From: Nitrospira sp.
Lineage (GTDB): Bacteria; Nitrospirota; Nitrospiria; Nitrospirales; Nitrospiraceae
Assembly: GCA_024760525.1 (NCBI GenBank)
Contig: CP060499.1
Coordinates: 997,296-1,029,295 of the forward strand
Length of the DNA stretch: 32,000 nt
Reading direction: 5' to 3'
The position numbers and the translations under genes are program-made. This document shows, piece after piece, positions 2,330-32,000 of this stretch (the stretch's first letter is position 1; each line of letters begins with the position of its first letter). The notes under the pieces were generated by a model. The model was given only the letters and a program-made list of their open reading frames with translations, was not told the DNA's origin and searched no databases.

Positions 2330-3964
2330 ATGAGTTCAACACCAGGCAGCACACCGGCGCGCCAATTTAAGAAGCTCCTGATGTCCGAGCAGTTGGAATT
2401 CATCTGTGAAGCCCACAATGGTCTGAGCGCAAAAATAGTTCAAGAAGCCGGCTTCCGAGGTATTTGGGCCAGCGGCCTTTCCATCTCGGCGCAATTCGGT
2501 GTCCGCGACAACAACGAAGCCAGTTGGACCCAAGTCCTGGACAATCTGGAATTCATGTCCGATGCGACGACGATTCCGATTCTTCTCGACGGCGATACCG
2601 GATACGGCAACTTCAATAACATGCAGCGTCTCGTCCGTAAACTGGAGCAGCGCCGTATTGCCGCGGTCTGTATCGAGGACAAGCTTTTCCCCAAGACGAA
2701 TAGCTTTATCAAGGGGGACGCCCAACCGATGGCGGACATGCAAGAGTTTTGCGGCAAGATCAAGGCAGGCAAAGATGCCCAGACCGATCCGGACTTTTCC
2801 ATCATTGCCCGGGTGGAAGCATTTATCTGCGGCTGGGGGCTGGCGGAAGCTTTGCGGCGAGCCGAGGCCTATCGGCAGGCAGGTGCCGACGGCATCCTCA
2901 TTCATAGTGCGTTATCGGTACCGGATGAGATCCTGTCGTTCAAACAAGAATGGGGAAACCGATGCCCGGTCGTGATCGTGCCCACCAAATACTACGCCAC
3001 GCCCACCGATGTGTTTCGGCAGCATGGATTTTCCATGGTGATTTGGGCCAATCACATGCTGCGGGCCGCGGTGGCCGCCATGCAGAAAACGGCGAGGATT
3101 TTAAAAGAACAAGAACATCTCCTCTCCATTGAAGACAAGGTCGTGCCGGTTTCAGAAATCTTTCGCCTGCAAAATGCTGCGGAATTACAGGATGCTGAAG
3201 ACCGATACCTTCCCCGCGGCGCCGAAAACACGTCCGCCGTCGTGCTGGCCGCCTCCCGCGGGGAGGAACTCCGGGAGTTGACGGAACATCAGCCCAAGAC
3301 GATGGTGAACATTCAGGGCGCGCCGATTCTGTCTCACATCGTGGAGGCGTACAACGCCGTGGGGATCAAAGACATCACGGTCGTGCGCGGGTATAAAAAG
3401 GAAGCGGTGACCCTGCCGAACTTGACCTATCTCGACAACGATGACTTTGCTGAAACCGGTGAACTGGATTCCCTGGACAAAGCTCTCCGGGCGCGGAAAG
3501 GCCTGGCCAAGGACCTGATCGTTTCGTACGGTGACGTGCTGTTCAATAAATACATCCCTCAGGCGCTCTGTCAGGAAAAAGAAGACTTTGTGATCTTCGT
3601 GGATAGCGATTGGCAGAACCAAAGCAGCTATGCTCGCTTGGGCGGTTTTGCCGAATGCTCTTTGCCCAATTCAAAGAAGGCCTTTAACGCGAAGATCTAT
3701 CTCAAGCAATTGGGAGATACGGTTCCGAGAGAACACACTCATGGAGTCTGGATGGGTTTTCTGAAAACTTCTCCTGCTGGAGCCGTCCAGTTACAAACGA
3801 TTCTGACCGCAATGCTGGCCGATCCCGTCAATCGCAAAGCCGGCATCCCCCATCTGTTGCAAGAACTGCTAAGGCGTCAGCATCCGATTCGCGTGCTGTA
3901 TACGGTCGGCCACTGGCTTGATATCAACAGTCTCGATGACGTGGTTCAAGCAGGTAATTTTTGA
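2330..3964 (+). CDS. pepM: phosphoenolpyruvate mutase fused to a C-terminal nucleotidyltransferase (LicC/PntC-like) domain
   Basis: 544-aa ORF. The N-terminal ~290 aa carry PEP mutase/isocitrate-lyase superfamily motifs ('[10 protein letters not shown]', '[10 protein letters not shown]', 'CIEDKLFPK'). The C-terminal ~250 aa begin with an '[16 protein letters not shown]' sugar-nucleotidyltransferase-like glycine-rich loop. Confidence 0.85.
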
Positions 3965-4085: not shown

Positions 4086-5219
4086 ATGCTGAACCCACAG
4101 GAATTTATTGAATGTCTGAAAGAGAATGGCGTTGAGTTTTTTACGGGAGTGCCGGATTCCCTGCTTAAAGATTTGTGTGCCTGCATCGCTCATACGAGTC
4201 GAACCGATCGGCACATCATCGCCGCGAATGAAGGCGGAGCCGTGGCTTTGGCACTGGGGTACCACTTGGCAACACGGAACATTCCCCTCGTCTATCTACA
4301 GAACTCCGGGTTGGGCAACGTCATCAATCCCCTTTTATCACTGGTTGATGAAGAGGTGTATTCGATTCCTATGCTGTTCGTCATTGGCTGGCGTGGCGAA
4401 CCGGGGTTTCACGATGAGCCTCAACACAAAAAGCAGGGTCGAGTGATGCGTCCCATGCTTGAGGCCATGGAGATTCCCGTTTCCGTGTTGGGGCCGGAAT
4501 TGGATCATGCGGCCACGATCGTGAAAGACGCACTTACCTATGTCCGAAAGACCAGCGGCCCCTATGCCCTCATCATCAAGCAAGGTACCTTTGGCACCTT
4601 TGTTGCGCCGCGGACTGAGAAAACGGAGTTCCCACTCACTCGGGAAGAGGCGATCCAGCAGGTGATCGATGCCCTGGAGCAGCGAGATGTGGTTATCTCT
4701 ACCACTGGCATGCCTTCTCGGGAAGTGTACGAATACAGAAGCAAAAGGGGTGACGGCCATCAGCGCGATTTCTTAACGGTTGGCGGCATGGGACATGCTT
4801 CTCAAATCGCGCTTGGCATTGCGCTTCAAAGACCTGAGCGCTCCGTCTATTGTCTCGATGGAGACGGCGCGCTTCTGATGCACATGGGGGCTCTGGCGCT
4901 CAATGGAACGCTCAAGCCCAGAAATTTTAAGCATATTATTCTGAACAATGGCGCCCATGATTCGGTCGGTGGTCAGCCGACAGTGGCACGGGATATTGAT
5001 ATTCTGGGCATTGCTCGTGCCTCTGCCTACGAACAGGTCCTGAGGGCTCAAACGAAGCAGGAACTCCAGTCGTGTCTGGAAGAGCTGAAACGCGCAATTG
5101 GTCCGAGCCTACTGGAAGTCTGCGTACGCCGCGGAGCGAGGAAGGATTTGGGCAGACCGGCCACCACGCCGGTTCAGAACAAGAACGCCTTCATGGAGTT
5201 TATCGAGCGCAACGGTTAG
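4086..5219 (+). CDS. ppd: phosphonopyruvate decarboxylase (thiamine diphosphate-dependent)
   Basis: 377-aa ORF. N-terminal TPP pyrimidine-binding domain ('FFTGVPDSLLKDL...NEGGAVALALGYHLA'). C-terminal TPP motif 'LDGDGALLMHMGALA...ILNNGAHDSVGGQ'. Its position directly after pepM is the canonical phosphonate arrangement. Confidence 0.85.
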   Translation: MLNPQEFIECLKENGVEFFTGVPDSLLKDLCACIAHTSRTDRHIIAANEGGAVALALGYHLATRNIPLVYLQNSGLGNVINPLLSLVDEEVYSIPMLFVIGWRGEPGFHDEPQHKKQGRVMRPMLEAMEIPVSVLGPELDHAATIVKDALTYVRKTSGPYALIIKQGTFGTFVAPRTEKTEFPLTREEAIQQVIDALEQRDVVISTTGMPSREVYEYRSKRGDGHQRDFLTVGGMGHASQIALGIALQRPERSVYCLDGDGALLMHMGALALNGTLKPRNFKHIILNNGAHDSVGGQPTVARDIDILGIARASAYEQVLRAQTKQELQSCLEELKRAIGPSLLEVCVRRGARKDLGRPATTPVQNKNAFMEFIERNG

Positions 5220-19666: not shown

Positions 19667-19948
19667 ATCGCGGCCTCCGATTTGAGTGCGCTCCTACGTG
19701 ATGAACGACCTGCACCTTCGAGGCTGAAGTGGACGGTGATCCCGGTAGTCCATGAAGCCGAGGCTCCAAGGTATTGATGCTGGAAGACAAACTAGCGGTA
19801 TGATCAGCAACGAGTATAGCGAGATTGATCCGCACAAAGCAAAGTTCATGATCCCGCAGAGGGGGAGAAAAACTCTGTGTTTCCATGTCCGTCCTTCTTG
19901 ATTGGCCGGCCATGAAGGAGGATAATCCAGGAAAGGTAGGATGAGTCC

Positions 19949-21049
19949 ATGCCTGTCCCGCGCGTTAGAACGGGGGCGTTTGCCGCCGGTATCGCCGCAT
20001 TGATCCTTGGATTGCTTATCTTCCATCTTCCCACCGAAGTTGCGAAATCTTTTCTCTCGTTATTTCCTCAACCGATATCGACAACGTTTGAGATGGAACA
20101 CCTCATGTCGGCGGCACGGGAAAATGCCACCGCCCTCACGCCTCAGGCTTTGGATGAACCGTCGTGGAAGCCCTTGGTGACTCGAGTCTTCAGCATGGCG
20201 TTGATCGGGCTGCCCATTTGGTACCTTTTACAACGTCGTGAACGCGAAGAGGAACTCCAACGACGCGATGAAGGCTGGGCGGCGCGCCTGCACGCGCGCA
20301 GTGAAGAGCTGATGGCCGTCAACAACGCCCTTGTCAGCGAGGTATCGAAGCGAATTGATACCGAACAATCGCTCGAAGCCAACCGGCGGGACCTTCACGT
20401 GCTTGCCTCGCAGCTTCTTCGCCTACAGGAGGACGAGCGACGGCGAATTTCGCGCGATCTGCATGACGACATCAATCAACGGTTGGCGCTCTTGTCGATC
20501 GACATCGAAATGTTGGAACAGCAGCTCTCGCACGCTTCCGACGGGACCGTCAGAACGGTGCACGCCATTCAGACCCGCATTGTCGAGCTTTCCGAAGATG
20601 TTCGCCGCCTGGCGTATCAGTTTCACCCATCCATTCTTGACGATCTTGGTTTATCCATTGCGCTCCGACGCCTCGTGGATGATTTTCAGGCCCGTACCGG
20701 GCTTAACGCCCGGTTCGTCTGCAAAGACATACCGAAACACTTGGCGCAGGACGTTGTCACCTGTTTCTACCGCTTGGCGCAAGAAGCCTTGGCGAACATT
20801 TCCCGTCATGCCAGGGCGAACAATGTTCAGGTTGAGCTTCGGCGATTGCGAGACGGCCTTCAGCTTCTGGTGAGTGATGATGGCGTGGGATTTGACGTGA
20901 ATCGTGATGAAGGCCGACGAGGAAGTCTCGGCCTATTGAGTATGAGGGAACGCGTATCCTTAGTTGCCGGAACCTTCGATATCCAATCGACACCGGGCGA
21001 GGGAACACGTGTCTGTGCGTGGGTGCCGTTGAAACAGGAGCGTGCATGA
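19949..21049 (+). CDS. sensor histidine kinase, NarX/DegS-type (HisKA_3 + HATPase_c)
   Basis: 366-aa ORF. Two TM segments flank a short (~45 aa) external loop, followed by a coiled-coil linker. H-box 'RRISRDLHDDINQRL', N-box 'QEALANISRHARA', and G-boxes 'DDGVGF' and 'GLLSMRERV...GEGTRV'. Its stop overlaps the response-regulator ATG (ATGA at 21046-21049). Confidence 0.85.
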   Translation: MPVPRVRTGAFAAGIAALILGLLIFHLPTEVAKSFLSLFPQPISTTFEMEHLMSAARENATALTPQALDEPSWKPLVTRVFSMALIGLPIWYLLQRREREEELQRRDEGWAARLHARSEELMAVNNALVSEVSKRIDTEQSLEANRRDLHVLASQLLRLQEDERRRISRDLHDDINQRLALLSIDIEMLEQQLSHASDGTVRTVHAIQTRIVELSEDVRRLAYQFHPSILDDLGLSIALRRLVDDFQARTGLNARFVCKDIPKHLAQDVVTCFYRLAQEALANISRHARANNVQVELRRLRDGLQLLVSDDGVGFDVNRDEGRRGSLGLLSMRERVSLVAGTFDIQSTPGEGTRVCAWVPLKQERA

Positions 21050-21693
21050 GCAAGCCTCGTGTCCTCTTGGCGGATGATCATGCATTAGTATTGGAAGGAT
21101 TCAAAAAGCTGCTGGAAGAGCATTGTCAGGTCGTGGGCGCCGTAGAAGACGGTCGGTCTCTGCTGGATGCGGCGAAACGGTTGCGGCCGGATATCGTGGT
21201 GATGGATATTTCGATGCCGCAACTGAACGGTCTCGATGCGGCGCGCCGCTTGCGAAAAATAGTTCCCCAGGCTCGATTGATTTTTGTGACTGTCCATGCT
21301 GATCCGGACTATGTCAATCAAGCCTTCAAGGCCGGGGCATCAGCCTACCTGCTGAAACGGTCGGCTGGGTCCGAGCTGTCACAGGCGATAGATGCGGTGA
21401 AGAAGGGCAATTATTACGTCACTTCTTTGATTGCAAAGGATCTTGTTCAATCCGCAATTTCCGAAACGGAGCCGGATAGTGGCAGTCAGGATCGCTTGCC
21501 GGCGCGCCAGCGGGAAATCTTACAGCTAGTGGCCGAAGGCCTGACTCTGAAAGAAATCGCTTCAACGCTCGGTCTCTCTCCGAAGACGGTCGAATATCAC
21601 AAGGCAAAGCTGATGGAGCAGCTTCGCCTCCATACGACGGCTGAACTGACAAAGTACGCGCTGGCCCACGGTCTCACCCCTTCATCCGAATAG
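21046..21693 (+). CDS. NarL/FixJ-family response regulator (REC + LuxR-type HTH)
   Basis: Starts at the internal ATG 21046 ('MSKPRVLLADDH'). Phospho-acceptor context 'DIVVMDISMP'. C-terminal HTH 'LPARQREILQLVAEGLTLKEIASTLGLSPKTVEYHK'. Confidence 0.9.
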   Translation: MSKPRVLLADDHALVLEGFKKLLEEHCQVVGAVEDGRSLLDAAKRLRPDIVVMDISMPQLNGLDAARRLRKIVPQARLIFVTVHADPDYVNQAFKAGASAYLLKRSAGSELSQAIDAVKKGNYYVTSLIAKDLVQSAISETEPDSGSQDRLPARQREILQLVAEGLTLKEIASTLGLSPKTVEYHKAKLMEQLRLHTTAELTKYALAHGLTPSSE

Positions 21694-21969: not shown

Positions 21970-22794
21970 ATGGCATCACCTCAAGCAACTGCTGACAAAG
22001 GGTATGACATATCGCAGTGGTATGACTCGAAGCCGGTGAAGTTGGGCTGGCTGGCGATCCTGGGGATCGGGGTGTTTTGGGTGCTGTATCAACGGGCCTT
22101 CGGGTACTCGCACGGGTTAGACTCCATGACCCCGGAGTTCGATTCGGTGTGGATGGGGCTGTGGCGCTTTAACATTTTAGCGAACGCCGTGTTCTTTGCC
22201 GTGACGATCGGCTGGATTTGGGTGACGCGGGACCGGAACCTGGCGAACCTGGACCACAAGCTGGAGCTGAAGCGGTACTTTTACTGGATGGGGTGGCTGG
22301 TGTGCTACATCTGGGGCGTGTACTACGCGGGCAGCTATACGCTGGAGCAAGATGCGGCGTGGCACCAAGTGATCATCCGGGACACGAGCTTCACGGCGAG
22401 CCACATTGTGGCGTTCTACGGGACGTTCCCGTTGTACATCACGTGCGGGGTGGCGAGCTACCTGTATGCGCAGACGCGGTTGCCGCTGTACGCGCAGGCG
22501 ACGTCGTTCCCGCTCGTGGCGGCGGTGGTGGGGCCGATGTTCATCCTGCCGAACGTGGGGTTGAACGAGTGGGGGCATGCGTTCTGGTTCGTCGATGAAT
22601 TGTTCTCGGCCCCGTTGCACTGGGGCTTTGTGACGTTGGGGTGGTGCGGGTTGTTCGGGGCAGCGGGCGGGGTGGCGGCGCAGATCGTGAGCCGGATGTC
22701 GAATCTGGCGGACGTGATCTGGAACAACGCGCCGAAGAGCATCCTGGATCCGTTCCCCAGCCAAGTGGGCCCCGGGCACAAGACCGTGTACTGA
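21970..22794 (+). CDS. amoC: ammonia monooxygenase subunit C (CuMMO PmoC/AmoC family)
   Basis: 274 aa from ATG 21970, which has a consensus AAGGAGG 7 nt upstream. It aligns along its whole length with Nitrosomonas europaea AmoC as I recall it ('YDxSxWYDSK', 'YQRxFxYSHGxDSMxPEFDxVWMGLWR', '[15 protein letters not shown]', '[30 protein letters not shown]'). Both metal-site ligand patterns are intact: D-x3-H-x12-H and N-x3-H-x13-H. Confidence 0.95.
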
Positions 22795-22921
22795 CAGGAG
22801 CTGGTCCTGAGGAGTGACGGTCAATATCAGGGACGTCCAAAACGTAGCTTGTGCTGGAACGGCAGACCGGGTAGTCCGGATCCGCCGCTCCAGCCGGCTG
22901 GAATGACGGAGGATGTCAGTT

Positions 22922-23764
22922 ATGTTTAGAACCGATGAGATTATTAAGGCCTCGAAGTTGCCGCCGGAAGGCGTGGCGATGTCCAGGCACATCGACTACA
23001 TTTATTTCATTCCGATCTTGTTTGTGACCATCGTGGGCACGTTCCACATGCACTTCGACCTGCTGGCGGGGGACTGGGATTTCTGGATTGATTGGAAGGA
23101 TCGGCAGTGGTGGCCGATCGTGACGCCCGTCACCGCGATTACCTTTTGTGCGGCCCTGCAATATTACAATTGGGTGAACTATCGGCAGCCCTTTGGGGCG
23201 ACGATCACGATTCTGGCGCTGCTGGCCGGGAAGTGGGTGACGATCGTGGCCGCCTGGTGGTGGTGGTCGAACTATCCGTATAACTTCGTGATGCCGTCCA
23301 CCCTGCTGCCGAGCGCGCTGGTGCTGGACATCGTCTTGTTGTTGACCCGGAACTGGACGTTGACGGCGGTGATCGGGGCGTGGCTGTTTGCCGCGTTGTT
23401 CTATCCGACCAACTGGGCCATCTTCGCCTATAGCCATACGCCGCTCGTCATCGACGGCACCTTGCTGTCGTGGGCGGACTACATGGGCTTTGCGTATGTC
23501 CGGACCGGGACGCCGGAGTACATTCGGATGATCGAAGTGGGCTCGCTGCGGACGTTCGGCGGGCACAGCACGATGATCTCCTCGTTCTTCGCGGCCTTCG
23601 CGTCGTCGTTGATGTACATCCTGTGGTGGCAGTTCGGGAAGTTCTTCTGCACGTCCTACTTCTACCTGACGGATGACCGGCAGCGGACGACCAAAGTGTA
23701 CGATGTGTTCGCGTACGCCACGTTGGCGAACCAGGACAAGGCCAAAGTCGGAGGGAAAGCATGA
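22922..23764 (+). CDS. amoA: ammonia monooxygenase subunit A (CuMMO PmoA/AmoA family), comammox clade A-like
   Basis: 280 aa from ATG 22922. GGAGG lies 9 nt upstream of this ATG, whereas the alternative ATG at 22913 abuts the SD. It is homologous to N. europaea AmoA throughout ('FRTxEIxKAxKxPPE', '[24 protein letters not shown]', 'YRQPFGAT', '[23 protein letters not shown]'). The recalled comammox clade A amoA primer sites match exactly at 23165-23181 and 23564-23579. Confidence 0.95.
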
Positions 23765-23790
23765 ACGCCAAACACGCCTTCAAACGGTGA
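23761..23790 (+). pseudogene. amoB: possible 5' remnant of amoB (9 codons, then TGA TAA)
   Basis: This ATG overlaps the amoA stop (ATGA), which is where amoB would start. It encodes MNAKHAFKR*, resembling the recalled AmoB N-terminus of N. europaea (MGIKNLYKRG...) at K4, aromatic-7, K8 and R9. The rest of amoB is missing. ftsH starts 59 nt later. Confidence 0.35.
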
Positions 23791-23848
23791 TAAGAGCTTC
23801 ACGGAGATAGGCTATCTGCTCAGACAGATCTATTGTGAGAGGCTACTC

Positions 23849-25654
23849 GTGAAAAGCAAAGCACAAACCGTACTGTTTTGGATGGTGGTAGGCCTGTCCA
23901 TGGTATTTCTTCTCAACCTATGGAACATGCCGACGCGCGTGTCAGAGGAAGAAATTATTTTTAGCGATTTCATGGCGAAGCTCGACCAGGGCGACATCGA
24001 GAAGGTCATCATCAAGGGACATCATATCAGCGGCGTATTAAAAGATAGTTCCCGGCTCCGAACCTACGCGGCGGACTATCCCGATCTCGTCCAGGTGCTG
24101 CGAGAGAAGCATGTTCAGATCGAGGTCAAACCGCTCGACGAAAGCCCGTGGTACGTCCAATTTCTGATGACCTGGGGACCGTTCGTGCTCTTTCTGGGTC
24201 TGTTGTTGTTCTTCATGCGCCGGATGCAGGTTGGGAAGGAAGCTCTGTCCCTCGGGAAAAGCAAAGCCCGCATGCAGACGGATGAGCGGAAAAAGGTGAC
24301 GTTTTCCGATGTGGCGGGAATTGATGAAGCGAAAGAAGAAGTACAGGAAACGGTTGAATTTCTGAAAGACCCTCGAAGATTCCAGAAACTCGGCGGACGC
24401 ATTCCTAAGGGTGTGTTGGTCGTAGGCCCGCCGGGAACCGGGAAAACATTGTTGGCTAAAGCGATTGCCGGTGAGGCGGGAGTCCCCTTCTTCAGCATCA
24501 GCGGTTCGGATTTTGTGGAAATGTTCGTGGGGGTCGGGGCCTCTCGCGTTCGGGACATGTTCGAACAAGCGAAAAAGCATGCCCCCTGTATCATTTTTAT
24601 CGACGAGATCGACGCCGTCGGACGGTCACGGGGGGCGGGGCTTGGCGGCGGAAACGATGAACGTGAGCAAACGCTCAATCAGTTGCTGGTCGAAATGGAC
24701 GGATTCGATACGACGGAAGGTGTCATCCTGGTCGCAGCCACCAATCGGCCGGATGTGCTCGACCCGGCCTTGCTGAGGCCAGGTCGGTTCGACAGGCAAG
24801 TGGTGGTGAATCAGCCTGACCTCCGAGGCCGTGCGCAGATTCTGAACGTGCACACGAAGAAAGTGCCGGTTGCAGCCGATGTAGAACTGGAGAAGATCGC
24901 TCGAGGAACTCCCGGTTTCTCAGGCGCCGACTTGGAAAACTTGGTCAACGAGGCTGCGCTTTGGGCTGCTCGTCAGAACAAGAACGAAGTCGGGGCCGTA
25001 GACTTCGAAACGGCGAAAGACAAGATCATGATGGGCGCAGAGCGCAAGAGCATGATGCTTACAGACGAGGAAAAACGAGTCACCGCCTATCACGAGGCGG
25101 GCCATGCCTTGATGGCCAAACTGCTGCCGGGCACCGATCCAGTTCACAAAGTGTCCATCATTCCAAGAGGCCGCGCATTGGGTGTGACCATGCAGTTGCC
25201 GACCGACGATCGCCACAATTACTCCAAAGAGTTTTTGCGCGATAGGCTGGCGATTCTCATGGGCGGTCGAGTCGCGGAAGAACTGGTATTCAAACACGTC
25301 ACAACCGGAGCCGGCAACGATCTGGAGCGTGCAACTGATCTCGCGCGCAAGATGGTCTGCGAATGGGGCATGAGCGAAAAGCTGGGGCCGCTGACGTTCG
25401 GGCAGAAAGAGGAATCGATGTTTCTGGGACGCTCCTTTGGGGGCAGGCGTGATGTCAGTAGTGAAATGGCGCTGGAAATCGATCTGGAGATCAAGCGTCT
25501 TGTTACAGAAAGTTACGAGAGGGCCAAGCAAGTCCTCACCGAACAGATGGTGAGCTTGAAGGCGCTGGCGGCAGCACTCTTGGAAAAAGAGTCGCTGGAT
25601 GGGTCGGAAATCGACCGGATTATTCTACAGTCTTCTCCAGTCGCTTCTGCCTAA
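23849..25654 (+). CDS. ftsH: ATP-dependent zinc metalloprotease FtsH
   Basis: 601-aa ORF with a GTG start and GAGAGG upstream. Two TM helices, Walker A 'GPPGTGKT', Walker B 'IIFIDEID', SRH '[19 protein letters not shown]' and zinc motif 'HEAGHAL'. Confidence 0.95.
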
Positions 25655-25670
25655 TGCGATTGTGATGCGC

Positions 25671-25705
25671 ATACCGGCTCGCATTCCTGGAATGCGAGCC
25701 GGTAT
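25671..25705. terminator. perfect 17+17-nt inverted repeat between convergent ftsH and the carboxylase gene (candidate bidirectional terminator)
   Basis: ATACCGGCTCGCATTCC-t-GGAATGCGAGCCGGTAT is a perfect palindrome centred on 25688, giving about a 15-bp stem once a minimal loop is allowed. It sits in the 58-nt gap between two stop codons. There is no flanking U-tract on either side. Confidence 0.6.
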
Positions 25706-25712
25706 CGGTGGC

Positions 25713-28700
25713 TCACTCTTCCTGAATCACGAGCAACAGCTTTCCGGCGGGAACATGCTCTCGCTCCTGGCAATATAGCTGTTGCACAGTCCCATTCACC
25801 GGAGATTGGACCGTGAGCTCCATTTTCATCGATTCAAGAATAACTACCGGGCTTCCCGCAGTGACGCGCTGTCCGCTCGCCACGAGCAATTTCCACACAG
25901 TACCCGTTACGTGCGCAGTGATGGCGTGAGCCCCTTCGGGAAGATCGATCTCAGCTGATGGTTCTGCCGGGCCGGAGTCGGTGTCACTGATGTACTCCGC
26001 CTGACCACTGTTCCTCCAGCGCTCCCGCTCGGCTTCAAATGCAGCTTGCTGCTTGGTTTTGAACGCGCTGATCGAGGCGGCATTCTGTTGCAGGAACGTA
26101 TTGTACTGTTTCAGGCTGAAGGTCGTTTCTTCTACCTTCAACTTAAATCGTCCAGCTGTGAAGTCCTTGCGCAGCTCGTGCAGTTCGCTCCCGCTCACAG
26201 GATAGAAGCGAATCTGATCGAAAAAGCGCAGCAGCCACGGGTTGCCCTGCTTGAAATCGGCGGTTTGGCGATAGCGATTCCACATTTGCACGGTGCGTCC
26301 GACGAACTGATATCCGCCGGGGCCTTCCATGCCGTAGATGCACAGGTACGCGCCACCTATTCCCACCGCGTTCTCAGGAGTCCAGGTGCGCGCCGGGTTA
26401 TACTTCGTGGTCACAAGGCGGTGGCGGGGATCCAGCGGAGTCGCGACCGGCGCACCCAGATATACGTCCCCCAGCCCCAATACCAGATAGCTTGCCTCAA
26501 ATACGATACGTTGCACGTCTTCGACGCTGTCCAGCCCGTTGATACGACGGATAAACTCGATATTGCTCGGACACCACGGCGCATCGTTGCGTACGGACTG
26601 CATATATTTGTCGATGGCGACCTGTGTGGCCTCATCGTCCCATGAAAGCGGAAGATGCACGATGCGCGTCGGCACCTCCATTTCATCGACAGGGGGGAGA
26701 TTCTTCTCGGCACCCACGAGGATGTTGAGCAATCTGGCACGAGGCAATACTCGCGGCTGAAAATGAATCTGCAGAGACCGGATGCCGGGCGTCAGATCCA
26801 CGATTCCTTTCAGATGCTCCCTGTCGATTGTTTGTTGGAGCCATTCCATCAGGGCGTGCGCATGAAAGCGAAGATTGAGGTCGAGTATCGGCGGCCCATA
26901 CTCGATCAACAGATTTTCGTCCCCGGACTGGCGATACACGACCTGCATGTGCCGAGGACCTTCAGGAATATGATCCAAAATAGGCTGGTCCAGCAGGTCG
27001 GCTTCGGATGGCTTCGGGGTGATGTCTGGCTGCCGAAGACTTTGGATCATTACGCCCTGTGAGTGATCAAGCGCCAATGCGTGTTCTGCTGAAATCCGGC
27101 AGAAGCGTACGTGATCACCCGGCTTGAGCTGACCTATCTTCCAGAGATCGGCGCGGACGATCGAGGCGGGGCAGACGAAACCGCCGAGACTGGGACCATC
27201 AGGTCCCAATATCACCGGCATATCGCCGGTGAAAATCACCGCGCCAAGGGCATAGGCATTGTCGTGGATATTGGATGGGTGTAGACCTGCTTCGCCTCCG
27301 TCGTGGCGCGACCATTCGGGCTTGGGACCGATCAGACGTACGCCGGTGCGGCTGGAGTTGTGGTGGATTGCCCACTCGGTCTCAAAAAACATGCGGATAT
27401 CGTCATCAGAGAAAAACTCCGGCGCTCCGTGTGGGCCGTACAGCACGCGGATTTGCCAGTTATCGGTATAGTTCGGAATCAATTCCTGCGGCAGAGTGTG
27501 GGGGGTGTGGTCGTGCGTGGCCGCAATGTGCAGTAGGTCGCCACTGCGCAGAACGCGTCCGGCATGTCCACCGAACTGGCCGAGGGTGAAGGTGGCCTTG
27601 CTGCCAAGATAGGCAGGCACCTGAAAGCCGCCTTGCACGGCCAGATAAGCCCGGCAGCCGTGATTGCTGATTCGCCCGAACTGCAGCAATGCCCCTGCTT
27701 TGACCGCATGCGATTGCCATTGCGCCAATGGTTTGCCGTCCAGATGCATCTCGATCGATGCGCCGGTTGCGGCAATGACGCTGTCGCAGTTGAAACGAAG
27801 GGTCGGGCCGATAACAGTGATCTCGAGTCCGGCCTCATCCTGTCGGTTGTTGACCAGGCGATTGGCCAGACGGAATGCCAGATCATCCATCGGGCCTGAC
27901 GGCGGCACGCCGACTTGCCAATACCCCAGACGTCCTGGATAGTCCTGCACCGTCGTCTGCATTCCAGGGGTGAGCACCTCGATGGTCTCTGCGTGGTATC
28001 CAAATCCTTTGAGCACGCCCGTCGTGTACCGACCGCTACGGAACGCTGCACCGTGTAAGACTTGCTTGAGATAATTCAAATTCGTTTCAATGCCGTGCAG
28101 GGCGGTCTTATGGAGGGCTGTCGTCAGGCTTGCAATGGCTTGTTCACGCTCCGGCTCACGGATGATAATCTTGGCCAGCATCGGGTCATAGTACGGAGAG
28201 ACTTCGACACCACGCTCCACCCAGGTCTCGACACGTGCTTCCGATGGAAAGTCTGCGGCCGTGAGTGTGCCGCAGGACGGTTGAAAATCTTTCGCCGGAC
28301 TCTCGGCGTACACCCGTGCTTGAATGGCGACCCCTCGCGGTTGGATGTTGAGTGAATCCAGCGGTGGGAGATTCCCGGCAGCCTGCCGTACCATCCATTC
28401 CACCAGATCAATGCCGGTCACTTCTTCGGTCACACCGTGCTCGACCTGCAGACGCGTGTTGACCTCGAGGAAATAGAACTCGCTGCTGGAGGCATCGACA
28501 ATGTATTCCACCGTGCCGGCCGACTGATAATTGACCGCTTTCCCCAGGCGCGCGGCCGCGTCCAGCAGGGCTTGGCGCAAGGGCGGAGTCAGATTAGGAG
28601 CGGGGGTCTCTTCTATGACCTTCTGGTTGCGCCGTTGGACTGAGCAGTCACGTTCCCCTAGCGCGATCACTTTGCCCTTCCCGTCGCCGAAAATCTGAAC

Positions 28701-29327
28701 CTCAATGTGGCGGGCGTCTTCGACGTATTTTTCGAGAAACAAGCCGGCATCCTTAAAGTTGTTCTGTGCCAGGTATTTCACCGACTCGTACGCCTCGTTC
28801 AGTTCCTCTTTGTTCCGGCACAGACGCATGCCGATCCCGCCGCCGCCGGCTGTGCTTTTCAGCATGACGGGATAACCGATCTTTGCCGCCTCGGATACGG
28901 CGTGGTCGATGCTATCCAGCAGACCGGTCCCCGGAAGCAGCGGAACTTGATTCTGCATAGCCAGGGCGCGCGCCGTGTGTTTGAGACCGAAGGCGCGCAT
29001 CTGCTCCGGGCTGGGGCCGATAAAGGAAATGCCTTGGCCTGCGCACTGCTCGGCGAAATGTGCCTGCTCGCTGAGAAAACCATAGCCGGGATGAATGGCC
29101 TGTGCGCCGGTTCGTCTGGCAACATCCAAAATCTTGTCGGCGCGGAGATAGCTGTCCGCTGCGACTCCGCTGCCGATCCAATGAGCTTCATCAGCCTCTA
29201 CCACGTGCCGAGACAAGAGATCGGCGTCTGTATACACAGCGACGCTTTCCACCCCGATACGGCGCAGGGTACGGATGATACGGCAAGCAATGGTGCCGCG
29301 GTTGGCAATCAGTACCTTCTCAAACAT
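25713..29327 (-). CDS. urea carboxylase-family biotin enzyme, probably guanidine carboxylase
   Basis: 1204 aa from ATG 29327 ('[20 protein letters not shown]'). Domains: biotin carboxylase, KipA/KipI-type (allophanate hydrolase subunit 2 and 1-like) carboxyltransferase, and a C-terminal BCCP with biotinylation motif 'ILESMKMEL'. The 21 codons upstream of this ATG overlap the preceding gene and are probably not translated. Confidence 0.9.
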
Positions 29328-30006
29328 GCGCAATCCCTTTTCCGGCCGCCTCCCATACCAACAAGCGAATCGGCGTGGGATTGAAGGCATTACAGGGGTT
29401 ATTGAGCTGCGGGCAATTCGAGATCATCACGACGACGTCCATTTCAGCGCACATTTCGACATATTTGCCGGGCGCCGATACTCCGTCGACAAATTCAAGC
29501 CCGCCGGCGTCCGTCACCGGAACGTTCATGAAAAAGTTGATATTGCTGGGGAGATCGCGTTTGGTTAGGCCGAGTTGTTCACAAAGCGGATCGTGTGCCA
29601 AGGCATGGAGAAAACTATCTCGGCAGCTATGCATCGCATGCTTGTCCAGTGCATAACGAACTCTGTTGCTTTCCGACGCGCAGGCCCCGCCCAGCGTATC
29701 ATGACGCCCGCACGTGTCGGCGACGATCGTGAGCATGACGTTGCCGAAATTGGAATAGAGCTTGGTGCCGGTAGTCAAATACAGGCTTCTTTGCCGGCTG
29801 ATCGTGTCGGTGGCGCTATAGCGTTCCGGTGTATGAGCCGGGTTGAAGAACAGGGTATCGACCGCCTGGTTTCCTTCCAGATCGACAATGCGAAACGTCG
29901 CTCCTTTTTTTACCAGCTTGACCCACGGTTCGCCTGCGGGGCAGATCTCATCGACGACGGCATGCTCTGGATCAAGCCGGCTTTCGATCAGGTTGTGCAC
30001 GCTCAT
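29320..30006 (-). CDS. DUF1989 'urea carboxylase-associated' protein (carboxyguanidine deiminase subunit-like)
   Basis: 228-aa ORF. '[18 protein letters not shown]...YSATDTI...[13 protein letters not shown]...[16 protein letters not shown]' follows the DUF1989 pattern. It overlaps the carboxylase start by 8 nt and the upstream paralogue by 4 nt. Confidence 0.8.
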
Positions 30007-30734
30007 TCGACACCTCCCTTACAGGCATACAATCGTTGAGTGTGTTGGAGACCTCGCATATTCTCAGCCAAACCCATACATTCTGCGGTGGATCCAGCCG
30101 GTGTAGGGAACAGGGCTAAGCGGACTGCACCTGGACGGTAGACTTTGGATGGGTCGAGCGGGTGCGGGGCGGCGGACAGCACAACCAGCGTATCCATTTC
30201 GAAGCTCAGATCGACGGAGTCGCCGGGTCTTCTGTGATCTTCCTTAAAAGACAGTTCTCCGGATGAATCAGCGGTGATCTTACTGAAAAAATTAATGTTG
30301 GAGACGACATCCCGCTTCCCTAACCCCCATTTGCCCAGCTCGATGAGCATTCCGTCCAGCCCGCTCCGATACATCTGATTCCGATGCTCCTGATATCGGG
30401 CGACACCGTATTGCTTCTCTATCTGCTCGGCATCACTCAGTCCGCATGCGGTGTCATGCCAACCGGTCGTGTCTGCGGTAATGAAACAGAAAATGCGCCC
30501 CATATCGGAATAGCAGGCGTGTCCTTTGGTCAATCGGAAGGTATGTTGACACTTCAGCGTATCCGCCATGTTGTACCGTTCCAATTTCTCTTCACGGTTA
30601 AACAACAGCACGGCGGCGTTGGCTCTGCCTTCGACGTCTTCCAGCCGCAGGGTCGTGCCACGGCGCACAATACCGGACCAATGACAACCTCCGGGGACGG
30701 TTTCTTCCCAGAGCAAGGAATGAGCGTGATTCAT
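30003..30734 (-). CDS. DUF1989 'urea carboxylase-associated' protein, second paralogue (carboxyguanidine deiminase subunit-like)
   Basis: ORF 30003-30749. I prefer the ATG at 30734 ('[11 protein letters not shown]') because GGAGGAG lies 6 nt upstream of it. '[18 protein letters not shown]...YNMADTLK...[13 protein letters not shown]...[15 protein letters not shown]' parallels the downstream paralogue. Confidence 0.8.
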
Positions 30735-30765
30735 GTGTGACTCCTCCATAACGTAAGGCGATTGA

Positions 30766-31998
30766 TTAATTCTTGCGGAGACGGTTGGTCAGCACGTACA
30801 GCGTCGTCACTCCCAGGATGCTTCCGAGGACCAGCGGGACAGCCCAGAGTTGCCACCAGGGAGCATCGGGCGAGGTTGCATAGGGGCGCGGCCATGCAAT
30901 ATTGATGAATTCGAATACTGACCAGACGAAGGCGACCGTATTGATGAGCAACCCCCAGGCGCCTAGTTTCAGCTGACCCAATGAGGGATCCCAACGGCCT
31001 GTGAGACGGGTAAAGAGTCCAACGCCCGTCGTCATCGCAAACATGGCGTACAACCCGCCCGTGCCGAACGCCAGCACCGTCGCAACTGCTTCGTCGTTGA
31101 GTCCGAAGAGCAATCCGAGCGTCGCGAGCAGAACCGTGAACATCACGGCGTTATGCGGAGCTCCGGCAGCGGTGACCCGACTCAGGAGGGCCGGCATACT
31201 CCCCTCACGCGCCATGGAAAATACAATACGGGATGTGTATTGCACCATGGATGACCCGCAAGCCAGAAAGGCAATCATGACAATCGTCAGGAAAGGGGTT
31301 TCGGCCCACGCTCCGAAGTTGTCGACGATCACGGGGGTGACGGGATCGGACGCGGCGCTCGTATGGACCAATGTGTCACGACTGAAGCTGAGGGTGAGCG
31401 CGGAAGAGTTGAAGAGCACCACGCTTCCCACCATGCAGAGAGACAAAAAGATCGCGCGCGGCACCATTCGTTTGGGATCGTGGGTTTCTTCGGCAATGGT
31501 TGAGCAGGCATCGAAGCCGATGAACGCCCAGCCGGAAATGGCAAGTGCCGCCAGAAACGCGGCGGTCTGGCTGGGGGCGGTTCCCGTCCCGAGATGCGCG
31601 AACAGTTCTGAGAATTCATGTTGCCGGAAAAAGAAAAACAGCAGCAGCGCGACACCGAACGAGCCGACGATTTCCGCATAGACACCCAGGGAAATAAGGA
31701 ACTTGAATATCGAGACGTGGACCAGGTTGAGGATGGTGCACACCAGCATGAACACCGCGCCCCATATCACGAGGCTGACTCCTGTTCCACCTCCTGATCC
31801 GAAAAAAATGGCCAGCCAGACGCCGCCGGTGTAGGCGGTGGTGGTGAGCATCGCAATCGTGGAGCTGACATAGATGGCTCCGGCATATGTCCCTGTGGTG
31901 GGGCCTCCCAGCTGCCTCGCCCATTTGTACGCTCCACCCGCGATCGGAATCTGAGAGGACAGCTCCGCATACACGGTTGCCACCAGCAGCTGCATCAC
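30766..31998 (-). CDS. APC-superfamily amino acid/polyamine-type permease (5' end outside the window)
   Basis: 410 aa visible, all polytopic membrane sequence ('YAELSSQIPIAGGAYKW', many Gly/Ala-rich TM helices). The ORF runs off the window edge, so it is N-terminally truncated here. It lies 16-31 nt upstream of the DUF1989 pair on the same strand. Confidence 0.75.
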   Translation of the reverse strand: MMQLLVATVYAELSSQIPIAGGAYKWARQLGGPTTGTYAGAIYVSSTIAMLTTTAYTGGVWLAIFFGSGGGTGVSLVIWGAVFMLVCTILNLVHVSIFKFLISLGVYAEIVGSFGVALLLFFFFRQHEFSELFAHLGTGTAPSQTAAFLAALAISGWAFIGFDACSTIAEETHDPKRMVPRAIFLSLCMVGSVVLFNSSALTLSFSRDTLVHTSAASDPVTPVIVDNFGAWAETPFLTIVMIAFLACGSSMVQYTSRIVFSMAREGSMPALLSRVTAAGAPHNAVMFTVLLATLGLLFGLNDEAVATVLAFGTGGLYAMFAMTTGVGLFTRLTGRWDPSLGQLKLGAWGLLINTVAFVWSVFEFINIAWPRPYATSPDAPWWQLWAVPLVLGSILGVTTLYVLTNRLRKN

Positions 31999-32000
31999 CA

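Follow-up and report, generated by a model that had tools for sequence, protein, structure and literature searches.

Why should a Nitrospira chromosome carry amoC and amoA followed directly by ftsH, when the canonical CuMMO operon runs C-A-B and includes a full-length B subunit (~420 aa, PF04744) that is integral to the complex in solved pMMO structures? In the window, by which we mean the whole 32-kb stretch of DNA that was analysed, this locus offers amoC, amoA and only nine codons of amoB, and no PF04744-type sequence was present anywhere in the window. We consider it highly likely that the locus is the second, partial amo locus of a clade A lineage, consisting of a kinase, a regulator, amoC, amoA, about 29 nt of amoB, and ftsH. 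Its features are the following.

19949..21049, plus strand: sensor histidine kinase (Pfam HisKA_3 and HATPase_c; two predicted N-terminal membrane helices), first of a conserved five-gene block
21019..21693, plus strand: NarL/LuxR-type response regulator (Pfam receiver and GerE domains)
21970..22794, plus strand: amoC, partial-locus copy, 274 aa, intact
21999..23780, plus strand: repeat core shared with another amo copy of the same organism or sample (from contig ends, presuming k = 31)
22853..22894, plus strand: stem-loop in the amoC-amoA spacer, GCUGGAACGGC...GCCGCUCCAGC (centroid fold)
22913..23764, plus strand: amoA, partial-locus copy, 283 aa, intact, no frameshift
23761..23793, plus strand: amoB 5' remnant, with an ATG overlapping the amoA stop, MNAKHAFKR, then TGA TAA
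23794..23848, plus strand: ftsH leader, with the ribosome-binding site GAGAGG at 23837-23842
23849..25654, plus strand: ftsH, ATP-dependent zinc metalloprotease, 601 aa, last of the conserved block

The gene identities proposed in the first-pass annotation held up, with all three main products above their family cut-offs: AmoC and AmoA passed the equivalog thresholds (NF041641, 340 bits vs 319, and TIGR03078, 339 vs 281, for AmoC; NF041557, 349 vs 290, and TIGR03080, 356 vs 318, for AmoA), and FtsH reached 866 bits against the TIGR01241 cut-off of 600. The FtsH translation contains the domains FtsH_ext, AAA, AAA_lid_3 and Peptidase_M41, together with a Walker A motif (GPPGTGKT), a Walker B motif (IIFIDEID) and the zinc motif HEAGH. 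The remark that ftsH has host-like codon usage was also borne out, GC3 being 0.865 in amoC and 0.849 in amoA vs 0.648 in ftsH, 0.61 in the kinase and 0.587 in the regulator. As called in relatives, the regulator is 215 aa long, equivalent to a start near 21046, and among the relatives compared it never occurred apart from the kinase, and an amoC followed directly in every case. A hairpin occupies the corresponding position in every aligned amoC-amoA spacer, its sequence differing from one spacer to the next, and the automatic alignment used for RNAalifold on the spacers left these hairpins out of register. The ftsH gene starts with GTG at 23849, six nt past GAGAGG, 55 nt past the stub TAA and 58 nt past the TGA, and the leader motif GAGAGGCTnCnnKTG is kept in all amo-ftsH loci, including that of L097, which is without amoA (L and P numbers denote the genomes, contigs and proteins compared). 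No terminator-like site was found between amoA and ftsH, and the folding of this stretch did not improve on that of shuffled sequence (z = -0.52). The absence of a terminator and the conserved gene order are the basis on which amoC, amoA and ftsH are probably one transcript.

By identity values, the window groups with the clade A comammox Nitrospira and lies near Nitrospira sp. BO4. Its AmoA protein was 94-98% identical to those of clade A comammox Nitrospira, including many Nitrospira MAGs, 88% identical to that of a Rifle clade A genome, 60-64% to clade B and ~60% to Nitrosomonas, and its kinase was 99% identical to the kinase of strain BO4. An exact look-up of the window AmoA returned no record, as expected because the gene sits in an assembly-fragmenting repeat, and no mention of Nitrospira sp. 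BO4 was found in the literature search.

We then considered the claim that amoB is missing and that an amoB-like stub, coupled to amoA through an ATGA overlap, stands in its place. Direct reading of the sequence confirmed the overlap at 23761-23764 (amoA TGA at 23762-23764, ATG at 23761-23763), and tblastn with the AmoB of a relative gave zero matches in the 32-kb window. The stub reads ATG AAC GCC AAA CAC GCC TTC AAA CGG TGA TAA, that is, MNAKHAFKR and two stops. Its likeness to amoB reflects homology and not chance: the amoB genes of relatives have the same ATGA overlap and MNAK-type starts (MNAKHVFKQW in L017 and MNAKQAFKRW in P0243; L012 and L105 were also compared), and 26 of 29 nt match between window positions 23761-23789 and the start of the L105 amoB, at equal distances from the amoA stop. 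These comammox sequences are far closer to the stub than the N. europaea N-terminus with which the first-pass annotation had compared it; Nitrosomonas AmoB proteins begin MNIKSIFKLG or MSIKNIFKLG. The amoB-homologous part runs from 23761 to ~23789, where DNA homology stops. The same remnant, variably decayed, was present in L014, L016, L069, L072 and L106, and in L040 and L049 the stub ATG has turned into CTG. On the strength of these alignments, the nine-codon ORF is shown to be the surviving 5' end of amoB, lying at the right-hand border of a ~1.78-kb segment paralogous to canonical amoCAB. We infer that the stub is without function, as its length and sequence differ between species and the start codon is gone in two genomes.

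The arrangement is not peculiar to the window. The order kinase, regulator, amoC, amoA and ftsH without amoB was found in L014, L016, L040, L049 (the closed 4.14-Mb chromosome OZ245008.1), L069 and L072, while L053 shows the same locus start on a contig that stops within amoA. With the stub included, the order occurs in at least seven other Nitrospira genomes. FtsH orthologues with 79-87% identity follow amoA or amoC in eight cases (the six above, L097 and L106), and kinase orthologues lie upstream of amoC-(amoA)-ftsH in nine (L014, L016, L040, L049, L053, L069, L093, L097 and L098). Two of these, L097 and L098, have kinase, regulator, amoC and ftsH with amoA absent. The exception is L100, in which the kinase-regulator pair directly precedes a full amoCAB; flank exchange, whether by recombination or by misassembly, therefore does occur. 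As judged from gene order and identity, the partial amo locus is shown to be old and common to many clade A species.

A real rearrangement leaving an orphan amoCA, one of the explanations offered in the first-pass annotation, predicted a complete amoCAB elsewhere, and this was supported by four related genomes with both loci (L050, L012, L015 and L038 being the complete amoCAB found in the same genomes as four partial loci). In the window strain, short-read contigs from six runs end at 22028 and resume at 23751, and the four Logan contigs that match the window at 99.9-100% identity share 22028 as their last position; two start at 23751. We take these contigs to have been built with k = 31, an assumption on which the repeat extent of 21999-23780 depends. 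The repeat core spans AmoC codon 11 (GYDISQ...) to 20 nt into amoB, and the same borders were seen in orphan-vs-canonical alignments within the four genomes. The canonical amoB contig L105 departs from the stub exactly at 23781; it was obtained by an exact-pattern scan of JGI metagenomes and represents a close relative. A search of AmoB homologues for the strain's own amoB gave no protein named BO4, and P0243, the best N-terminal match, was rejected as a candidate, as it derives from unrelated metagenome assemblies with an AmoA identity of 88%. A full amoCAB, the source of AmoB, presumably lies elsewhere in the window genome, and we predict that its amoB begins ATGAACGCCAAACACGCCTTT.

Comparison of the two loci within single genomes revealed how closely the copies are tied. 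The nucleotide identity of amoA between the two loci of one genome was 99.8, 99.9, 99.9 and 91.7% in four relatives vs 80-91% between species, a pattern indicative of gene conversion whose tracts stop 20-34 nt inside amoB. Outside the shared segment the two loci differ: their amoC-amoA spacers and both flanks are divergent or unrelated. The derived codon ACA (MNATHVF) occurs in the stub of L016 and also in the amoB of L015. Concerted evolution was thus found in four relatives, with borders at about AmoC codon 11 and amoB nt 20-34; for the window strain itself it is indicated indirectly, by the contig breaks at 22028 and 23751. Gene conversion would keep amoA, and less completely amoC, almost identical to the canonical copy, and the remnant may be where conversion tracts run out of homology. 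Such conversion alone could preserve amoA without selection on the partial-locus copy.

What the locus might do was considered from its products and its surroundings. By alignment, the AmoC core is identical to the canonical AmoC of relatives; only the first ~10 residues and the C-terminal tail are locus-specific, and no alignment column outside the termini tells the orphan AmoC apart from the canonical one. Apart from those termini, both products match the canonical proteins, and the locus would therefore alter the timing and amount made, not the product. It has its own upstream region beside a dedicated two-component system, which may provide a separately regulated supply of the AmoC and AmoA core subunits, co-expressed with FtsH; this is the likeliest role we see, and in this specific form we put it forward tentatively. 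Extra or replacement membrane core subunits would be delivered along with the membrane-protein quality-control protease FtsH, an extension of the stress role that singleton amoC has been suggested to have in beta-proteobacterial ammonia oxidisers. A narrower version, in which the kinase-regulator-amoC-amoA-ftsH block is a dedicated, signal-controlled ammonia monooxygenase repair operon, seems to us quite unlikely. Under damage or stress, FtsH would extract damaged AmoC and AmoA and the locus would resupply just those two; AmoB made by the canonical operon would outlast them and be used again, amoB having been lost here as unneeded. Gene conversion would then keep the spare subunits interchangeable with the originals, and the whole would resemble the replacement of D1 by way of FtsH in photosystem II repair.

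The history of the locus could also have run in the other direction. An ancestral module of kinase, regulator, singleton amoC and ftsH may have existed first, amoA and ~30 nt of amoB being later arrivals, brought in by a conversion tract with its start in amoC and an illegitimate end in amoB, in which case no full amoCAB would have lost its amoB here. This origin is somewhat unlikely, although several observations accord with it. The amoC-ftsH loci of L097 and L098 show no trace of amoA, yet they share the ftsH leader and have a hairpin close to amoC, and all comammox genomes contain singleton amoC genes (PMC6311188). Moreover, the junction carries GGGTAA in the amoB of L015, GGTAAG in the L016 and L097 leaders and GATAAG in the window, a short shared motif that suggests a microhomology join. 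However, the amoA-containing form is more widespread and spans the deepest split sampled (~80% amoA nucleotide identity), and RBC069 (L053), with an amoC tail like the one in L097, has amoA; to assume that the L097 lineage lost amoA is therefore no less parsimonious.

We regard it as distinctly improbable that the locus is an inert duplicate, a decaying by-product in which amoA and amoC stay intact only through conversion from the canonical operon. The near-identity of the amoA copies means that their intactness is no evidence of selection on the partial-locus copy, the stub is plainly decaying, and amoA is absent from the locus in L097 and L098. Against this, the five-gene order is kept although FtsH is 79-87% and the kinase 58-84% identical across species, orthologous loci have kept the locus-specific start of amoC and the region upstream of it, and the CBDCWN01 copy, 8% diverged from its partner, is still intact.

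It had also been proposed that the assembly is chimeric. On this reading it jumped between amo repeat copies onto an unrelated ftsH locus, and the absence of amoB would be an artefact. The amoCA repeat does break short-read assemblies at both ends, with L091, L092 and L109-L112 finishing at or near 22028 and L009 and L010 beginning at the other repeat end, 23751, and one MAG (L100) shows an alternative flank pairing. However, the deletion junction, where 20-29 nt of amoB give way to the ftsH leader, is not part of the repeat; it is unique and identical in independent runs. L009 and L010 (runs SRR12460198 and SRR12381707) are short-read contigs 100% identical to window positions 23751-32000 that open in the last stretch of amoA and run through the stub into the ftsH leader; starting at 23751, they therefore carry the stub-ftsH join. 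A further independent stub-ftsH junction was found in a JGI metagenome contig (L106), seven or more other genomes or metagenome contigs, a closed chromosome among them, show the junction in divergent sequence, and the kinase-regulator pair and ftsH are neighbours even where amoA is absent (L097 and L098). For the amoA-stub-ftsH join, unique contigs in independent runs and recurrence in long-read genomes thus led us to reject a chimera. The left flank probably joins the right across 22029-23750, as synteny with other genomes suggests: window positions 19888 to ~25700 align in unbroken order with L069, L014 and L016. The chimera reading is largely refuted and, as a whole, highly improbable; it could be revived for the left join only.

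A functionally distinct AmoC-AmoA enzyme or sensor working without AmoB, the last of the suggestions in the first-pass annotation, would suit a locus that lacks amoB in every species and has its own regulator pair, but it found no support at the protein level and is extremely improbable, since within a genome the AmoA of this locus equals the canonical protein or comes very close to it and AmoC has no locus-specific core residue, leaving no sequence basis for a different activity.

A second, partial amo locus of this kind has practical consequences. The amoA copy number is used to convert qPCR or metagenome counts into comammox cell numbers, and a widespread second clade A amoA, rather than one confined to N. 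nitrosa, would bias such estimates up to two-fold. Short-read comammox MAGs often break at amoC or amoA because of the 1.78-kb near-perfect repeat, which is also a warning that short-read bins can pair flanks wrongly, as perhaps in L100. In addition, spare AmoC and AmoA genes linked to a two-component system and FtsH suggest a lead on the regulation or turnover of ammonia monooxygenase, a subject that to our knowledge is essentially unstudied in comammox bacteria.

Among known systems, the nearest are other clade A comammox bacteria. A second amoA was already reported for Candidatus Nitrospira nitrosa (van Kessel et al. 2015, cited by PMC6311188 and PMC6365651), and a 2018 review presents amoA duplication as an exception that only N. 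nitrosa shows. In AFB01, a soil comammox enrichment, two identical amoA copies are reported (PMC12516955). Both likewise have a second amoA beside a single amoCAB-hao cluster, and the AFB01 copies are identical, like those of three of the four genomes compared here; these papers give the copy number only. The literature search found no paper combining comammox, ftsH and amoA, and the two-component system-amoC-amoB stub-ftsH neighbourhood, the conversion borders and the multi-species spread were not found in the papers searched. Here the duplication appears in at least eight lineages.

The multi-copy amoCAB of Nitrosomonas and Nitrosospira likewise comprises near-identical paralogues while orthologues diverge, as under concerted evolution; those bacteria duplicate the whole amoCAB(ED), whereas the window copy is cut 20-34 nt into amoB and lies within an ftsH operon. 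By analogy only, photosystem II repair also joins a damage-prone membrane subunit with extra gene copies (psbA, D1) and FtsH turnover; there is no homology with the window locus, and an FtsH link to ammonia monooxygenase would be hypothetical. A further parallel is the singleton amoC3 of N. europaea, for which a role in stress response and recovery has been proposed (Berube and Stahl 2012, as cited in PMC6311188). Both are non-operonal amoC genes with their own regulation, and the amoC-ftsH form of L097 and L098 is itself a singleton amoC. AmoC3 of N. europaea is a divergent isoform under sigma-32 control, whereas the window amoC lies beside a two-component system and is followed by amoA and ftsH. 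With a core that is not divergent, the window AmoC falls outside the AmoC3-like stress-type singleton class, which is defined by a divergent isoform, a promoter dependent on a stress sigma factor and induction by heat or starvation; a similar role is possible.

Direct reading of the window gave a partial amo locus in which amoA is followed by a nine-codon ORF and then ftsH:

19949-21049, + strand: sensor kinase (HisKA_3), upstream of the amo genes
21019-21693, + strand: LuxR-type response regulator, upstream of the amo genes
21970-22794, + strand: amoC (family model NF041641, 340 bits; cut-off 319)
22913-23764, + strand: amoA (family model NF041557, 349 bits; cut-off 290), with its TGA stop forming the end of ATGA at 23761-23764
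23761-23793, + strand: stub ORF, ATG AAC GCC AAA CAC GCC TTC AAA CGG TGA TAA (MNAKHAFKR and two stops)
from 23849, + strand: ftsH, GTG start with GAGAGG six nt before it (family model TIGR01241, 866 bits; cut-off 600)

This layout bore out the first-pass annotation, which had described an ATG overlapping the amoA stop, the MNAKHAFKR stub and then ftsH, and no amoB-like sequence was detected across the whole 32 kb window. The accompanying remark that ftsH is host-like in codon usage also held, as GC3 was 0.85-0.87 in the amo genes (amoC, 0.865; amoA, 0.849) versus 0.59-0.65 in the kinase, regulator and ftsH (0.59-0.70 across all flanking genes). The high values are consistent with strong codon bias tied to expression or with amoC and amoA being of foreign origin. 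Downstream lies a urea carboxylase gene cluster convergent with ftsH (25713-31998, minus strand), comprising urea carboxylase (TIGR02712, 1924 bits), two DUF1989 urea-carboxylase-associated proteins and an amino-acid/urea-type permease; allophanate hydrolase was absent within the window. This cluster also follows ftsH in L009 and L010, two short-read contigs of the same strain, and not in the loci of other species. Elsewhere on the plus strand, 2330-3964 encodes a PEP mutase with a fused nucleotidyltransferase domain and 4086-5219 a TPP-dependent enzyme, a pairing typical of phosphonate biosynthesis.

In a scan with one genome per species, the window AmoA showed 94-98% identity to AmoA of numerous Nitrospira MAGs versus 60-64% for clade B, which places the window, by protein identity, in clade A comammox Nitrospira. 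On the contigs of the closest AmoA proteins (87-88% identical), amoB overlaps amoA by the identical four bases. Stub-like amoB starts were found in relatives, including L012, L017 (MNAKHVFKQWVMG), L020 (MNAKHLFKHF) and L105 (a JGI contig of a close relative), the last matching window 23761-23789 at 26/29 nt; beyond 23789, the window has no further homology to amoB. The shared overlap and the similar starts both favour the earlier remnant call, and the nine-codon stub is what is left of amoB. Every orphan locus with the amoA-ftsH order that was compared retains such a remnant, with 34 nt identical to its own amoB in L016 (a derived ACA codon included), ~23 nt identical to its own amoB in L069, ~32 nt kept in L014, and an ATG-to-CTG change with the remainder decayed in L040 and L049. 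Because sequence, length and even the start codon vary among loci, the stub itself appears to be a relic.

The order kinase, regulator, amoC, amoA, ftsH without amoB recurs in L014, L016, L040, L049, L069 and L072, while L053 has a matching locus start on a contig that runs out in amoA, and L106 provides an additional stub-ftsH junction. L049 sits on OZ245008.1, a 4.14-Mb record titled 'chromosome: 1' that also holds a canonical copy (L050); L069, L016 and L040 lie on large MAG contigs, and those MAGs also hold canonical amoCAB (L012, L015 and L038). These relatives with both loci support a real rearrangement that left an orphan amoCA, with a full amoCAB elsewhere. Exact look-up of the window FtsH retrieved L009 and L010 from two sequencing runs, with 100% identity to window 23751-32000 and a 5' end (GAGGGAAAGCATGAACGCCAAACACGCCTTCAAACGGTGATAAGAGC...) that covers the end of amoA, the stub and the leader of ftsH. 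For the kinase, exact look-up retrieved four contigs from other runs (99.9-100% identity), all of which stop at 22028. If the Logan contigs were built with k = 31, as we presume, the unresolved repeat would be 21999-23780, between AmoC codon 11 (GYDISQ...) and nt 20 of amoB. The published contig of Nitrospira sp. BO4, a close relative (~95% identity to the window left flank), stops 84 nt into this amoC, and the canonical amoB of L105 departs from the stub exactly at 23781 (...GCCTTt vs ...GCCTTc in the window), which would look like an assembly-graph branch at that base. The proposal of a chimera at the amoA-stub-ftsH junction is contradicted by the identical contigs from two runs and by the same order in other genomes, OZ245008.1 included. 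In one MAG, L100 (JARFXO010000001.1, 8001-17101), the kinase-regulator pair directly precedes a complete amoC-amoA-amoB and then the hao cluster, joining an orphan-type left flank to a canonical-type right flank, through either true recombination (flank exchange) between the 1.78-kb repeats or misassembly; the window's traverse of 22029-23750 is therefore to be read with caution.

We further compared orphan and canonical copies within each of four genomes. Only ~1.78 kb can be aligned, starting near AmoC codon 10 and ending at amoB nt 20-34; the sequences on either side are unrelated, and within the block the amoC-amoA spacer has often diverged. Identity between the two amoA copies of one genome is 99.8, 99.9 and 99.9% in three of the genomes and 91.7% in the remaining one, whereas orthologous orphan copies share only 80-91% between species; amoC shows a weaker, mosaic form of this pattern (89.5-97.7% within genomes). 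Since synteny and breakpoints are common to these species, the paralogy is old, and the high within-genome amoA identity is thus best explained by gene conversion, as inferred from the pattern. Differences between the AmoC proteins of the two loci are confined to the start (MA(A)S...(K/R)GYD vs MAADSSGRGYD) and the C-terminal tail, and no core column discriminating orphan from canonical was found in the protein alignment. The orphan locus therefore encodes no different enzyme, which leaves the suggestion of a two-subunit paralogue with a distinct role unsupported.

Variant loci were also recovered. L097 and L098 (GCA_016722055.1 and GCA_016712165.1; 8001-12773) encode kinase, regulator, amoC and ftsH with neither amoA nor stub; amoC is followed by a 195-nt hairpin-bearing spacer, and the ftsH leader is as in amoA-bearing loci. 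This shows that the amoC-ftsH linkage is independent of amoA. Loss of amoA in the L097 lineage is slightly favoured over gain in the others because the amoA-containing form is more widely distributed, the spacers not being discriminating. Seven collinear genomes and the amoA-less form support the link of the kinase-regulator pair to ftsH. In Ca. N. nitrificans, kinase, regulator and amoC are followed by the contig end. L014 (13638-14423) and L016 (13824-14618) carry an extra amoC ~0.9 kb past ftsH, which leaves ftsH flanked by amoC genes; in the window, this position is occupied by the urea carboxylase cluster. In the clade B MAG SMAG_U8961 (L086, 3856-5620), a homologous regulator (56%) and kinase (41%) adjoin amoCAB on the opposite strand, and the amo association of this two-component system may extend beyond clade A. 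A long GC-rich hairpin closely precedes the ribosome-binding site of amoA at window 22853-22894 and at equivalent sites in L011-L069. It is present in every amoC-amoA spacer, its stem retained while the sequence varies by locus (e.g., L059, GGTTGACCAGGC...GCCTGGTCAACC); the changes look compensatory, which hints at an element for mRNA processing or stability.

A second amoA in comammox is already known, so the window is a further instance. A 2018 review described a single amo-hao cluster in comammox genomes except Ca. N. nitrosa, where amoA is duplicated, and at least one non-operonal amoC in all of them (PMC6311188). Primer design has used both N. nitrosa amoA copies (PMC6365651), the AFB01 soil enrichment has two identical copies (PMC12516955), and a 2024 preprint gives one to two copies in most comammox organisms. 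In the searchable literature, which did not include van Kessel et al. 2015 (N. nitrosa locus), we found neither the amoB stub, nor the linkage of amoCA to ftsH and a two-component system, nor the exact conversion borders and breadth across clade A. The orphan locus bears on amoA-based quantification and MAG assembly, and gives a lead on how AMO may be regulated or turned over that can be put to the test. Most canonical amoA-amoB short-read contigs (L002-L007 and many loci of the one-genome-per-species scan, e.g., L017-L023) begin no more than 100-350 nt before amoA, inside amoC or just after it, which suggests that assemblies of comammox MAGs systematically break at multi-copy amoC.

No terminator-like site was found between amoA and ftsH, where the spacer is no more structured in folding than shuffled sequence, suggesting that amoC, amoA and ftsH may be co-transcribed. 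The two-component system adjoins the amo genes in 12/12 loci examined, and this adjacency suggests that it could control all three genes. Since the orphan locus yields the same AmoC and AmoA as the canonical one, its most economical role would be a separately regulated source of both membrane core subunits, supplied with the quality-control protease FtsH, for which AmoB would be drawn from the main operon. Such a role would be similar to the one in stress that has been suggested for singleton amoC3 in Nitrosomonas europaea (Berube and Stahl 2012, cited in PMC6311188) and, by analogy only, to the FtsH-dependent replacement of D1 in photosystem II.
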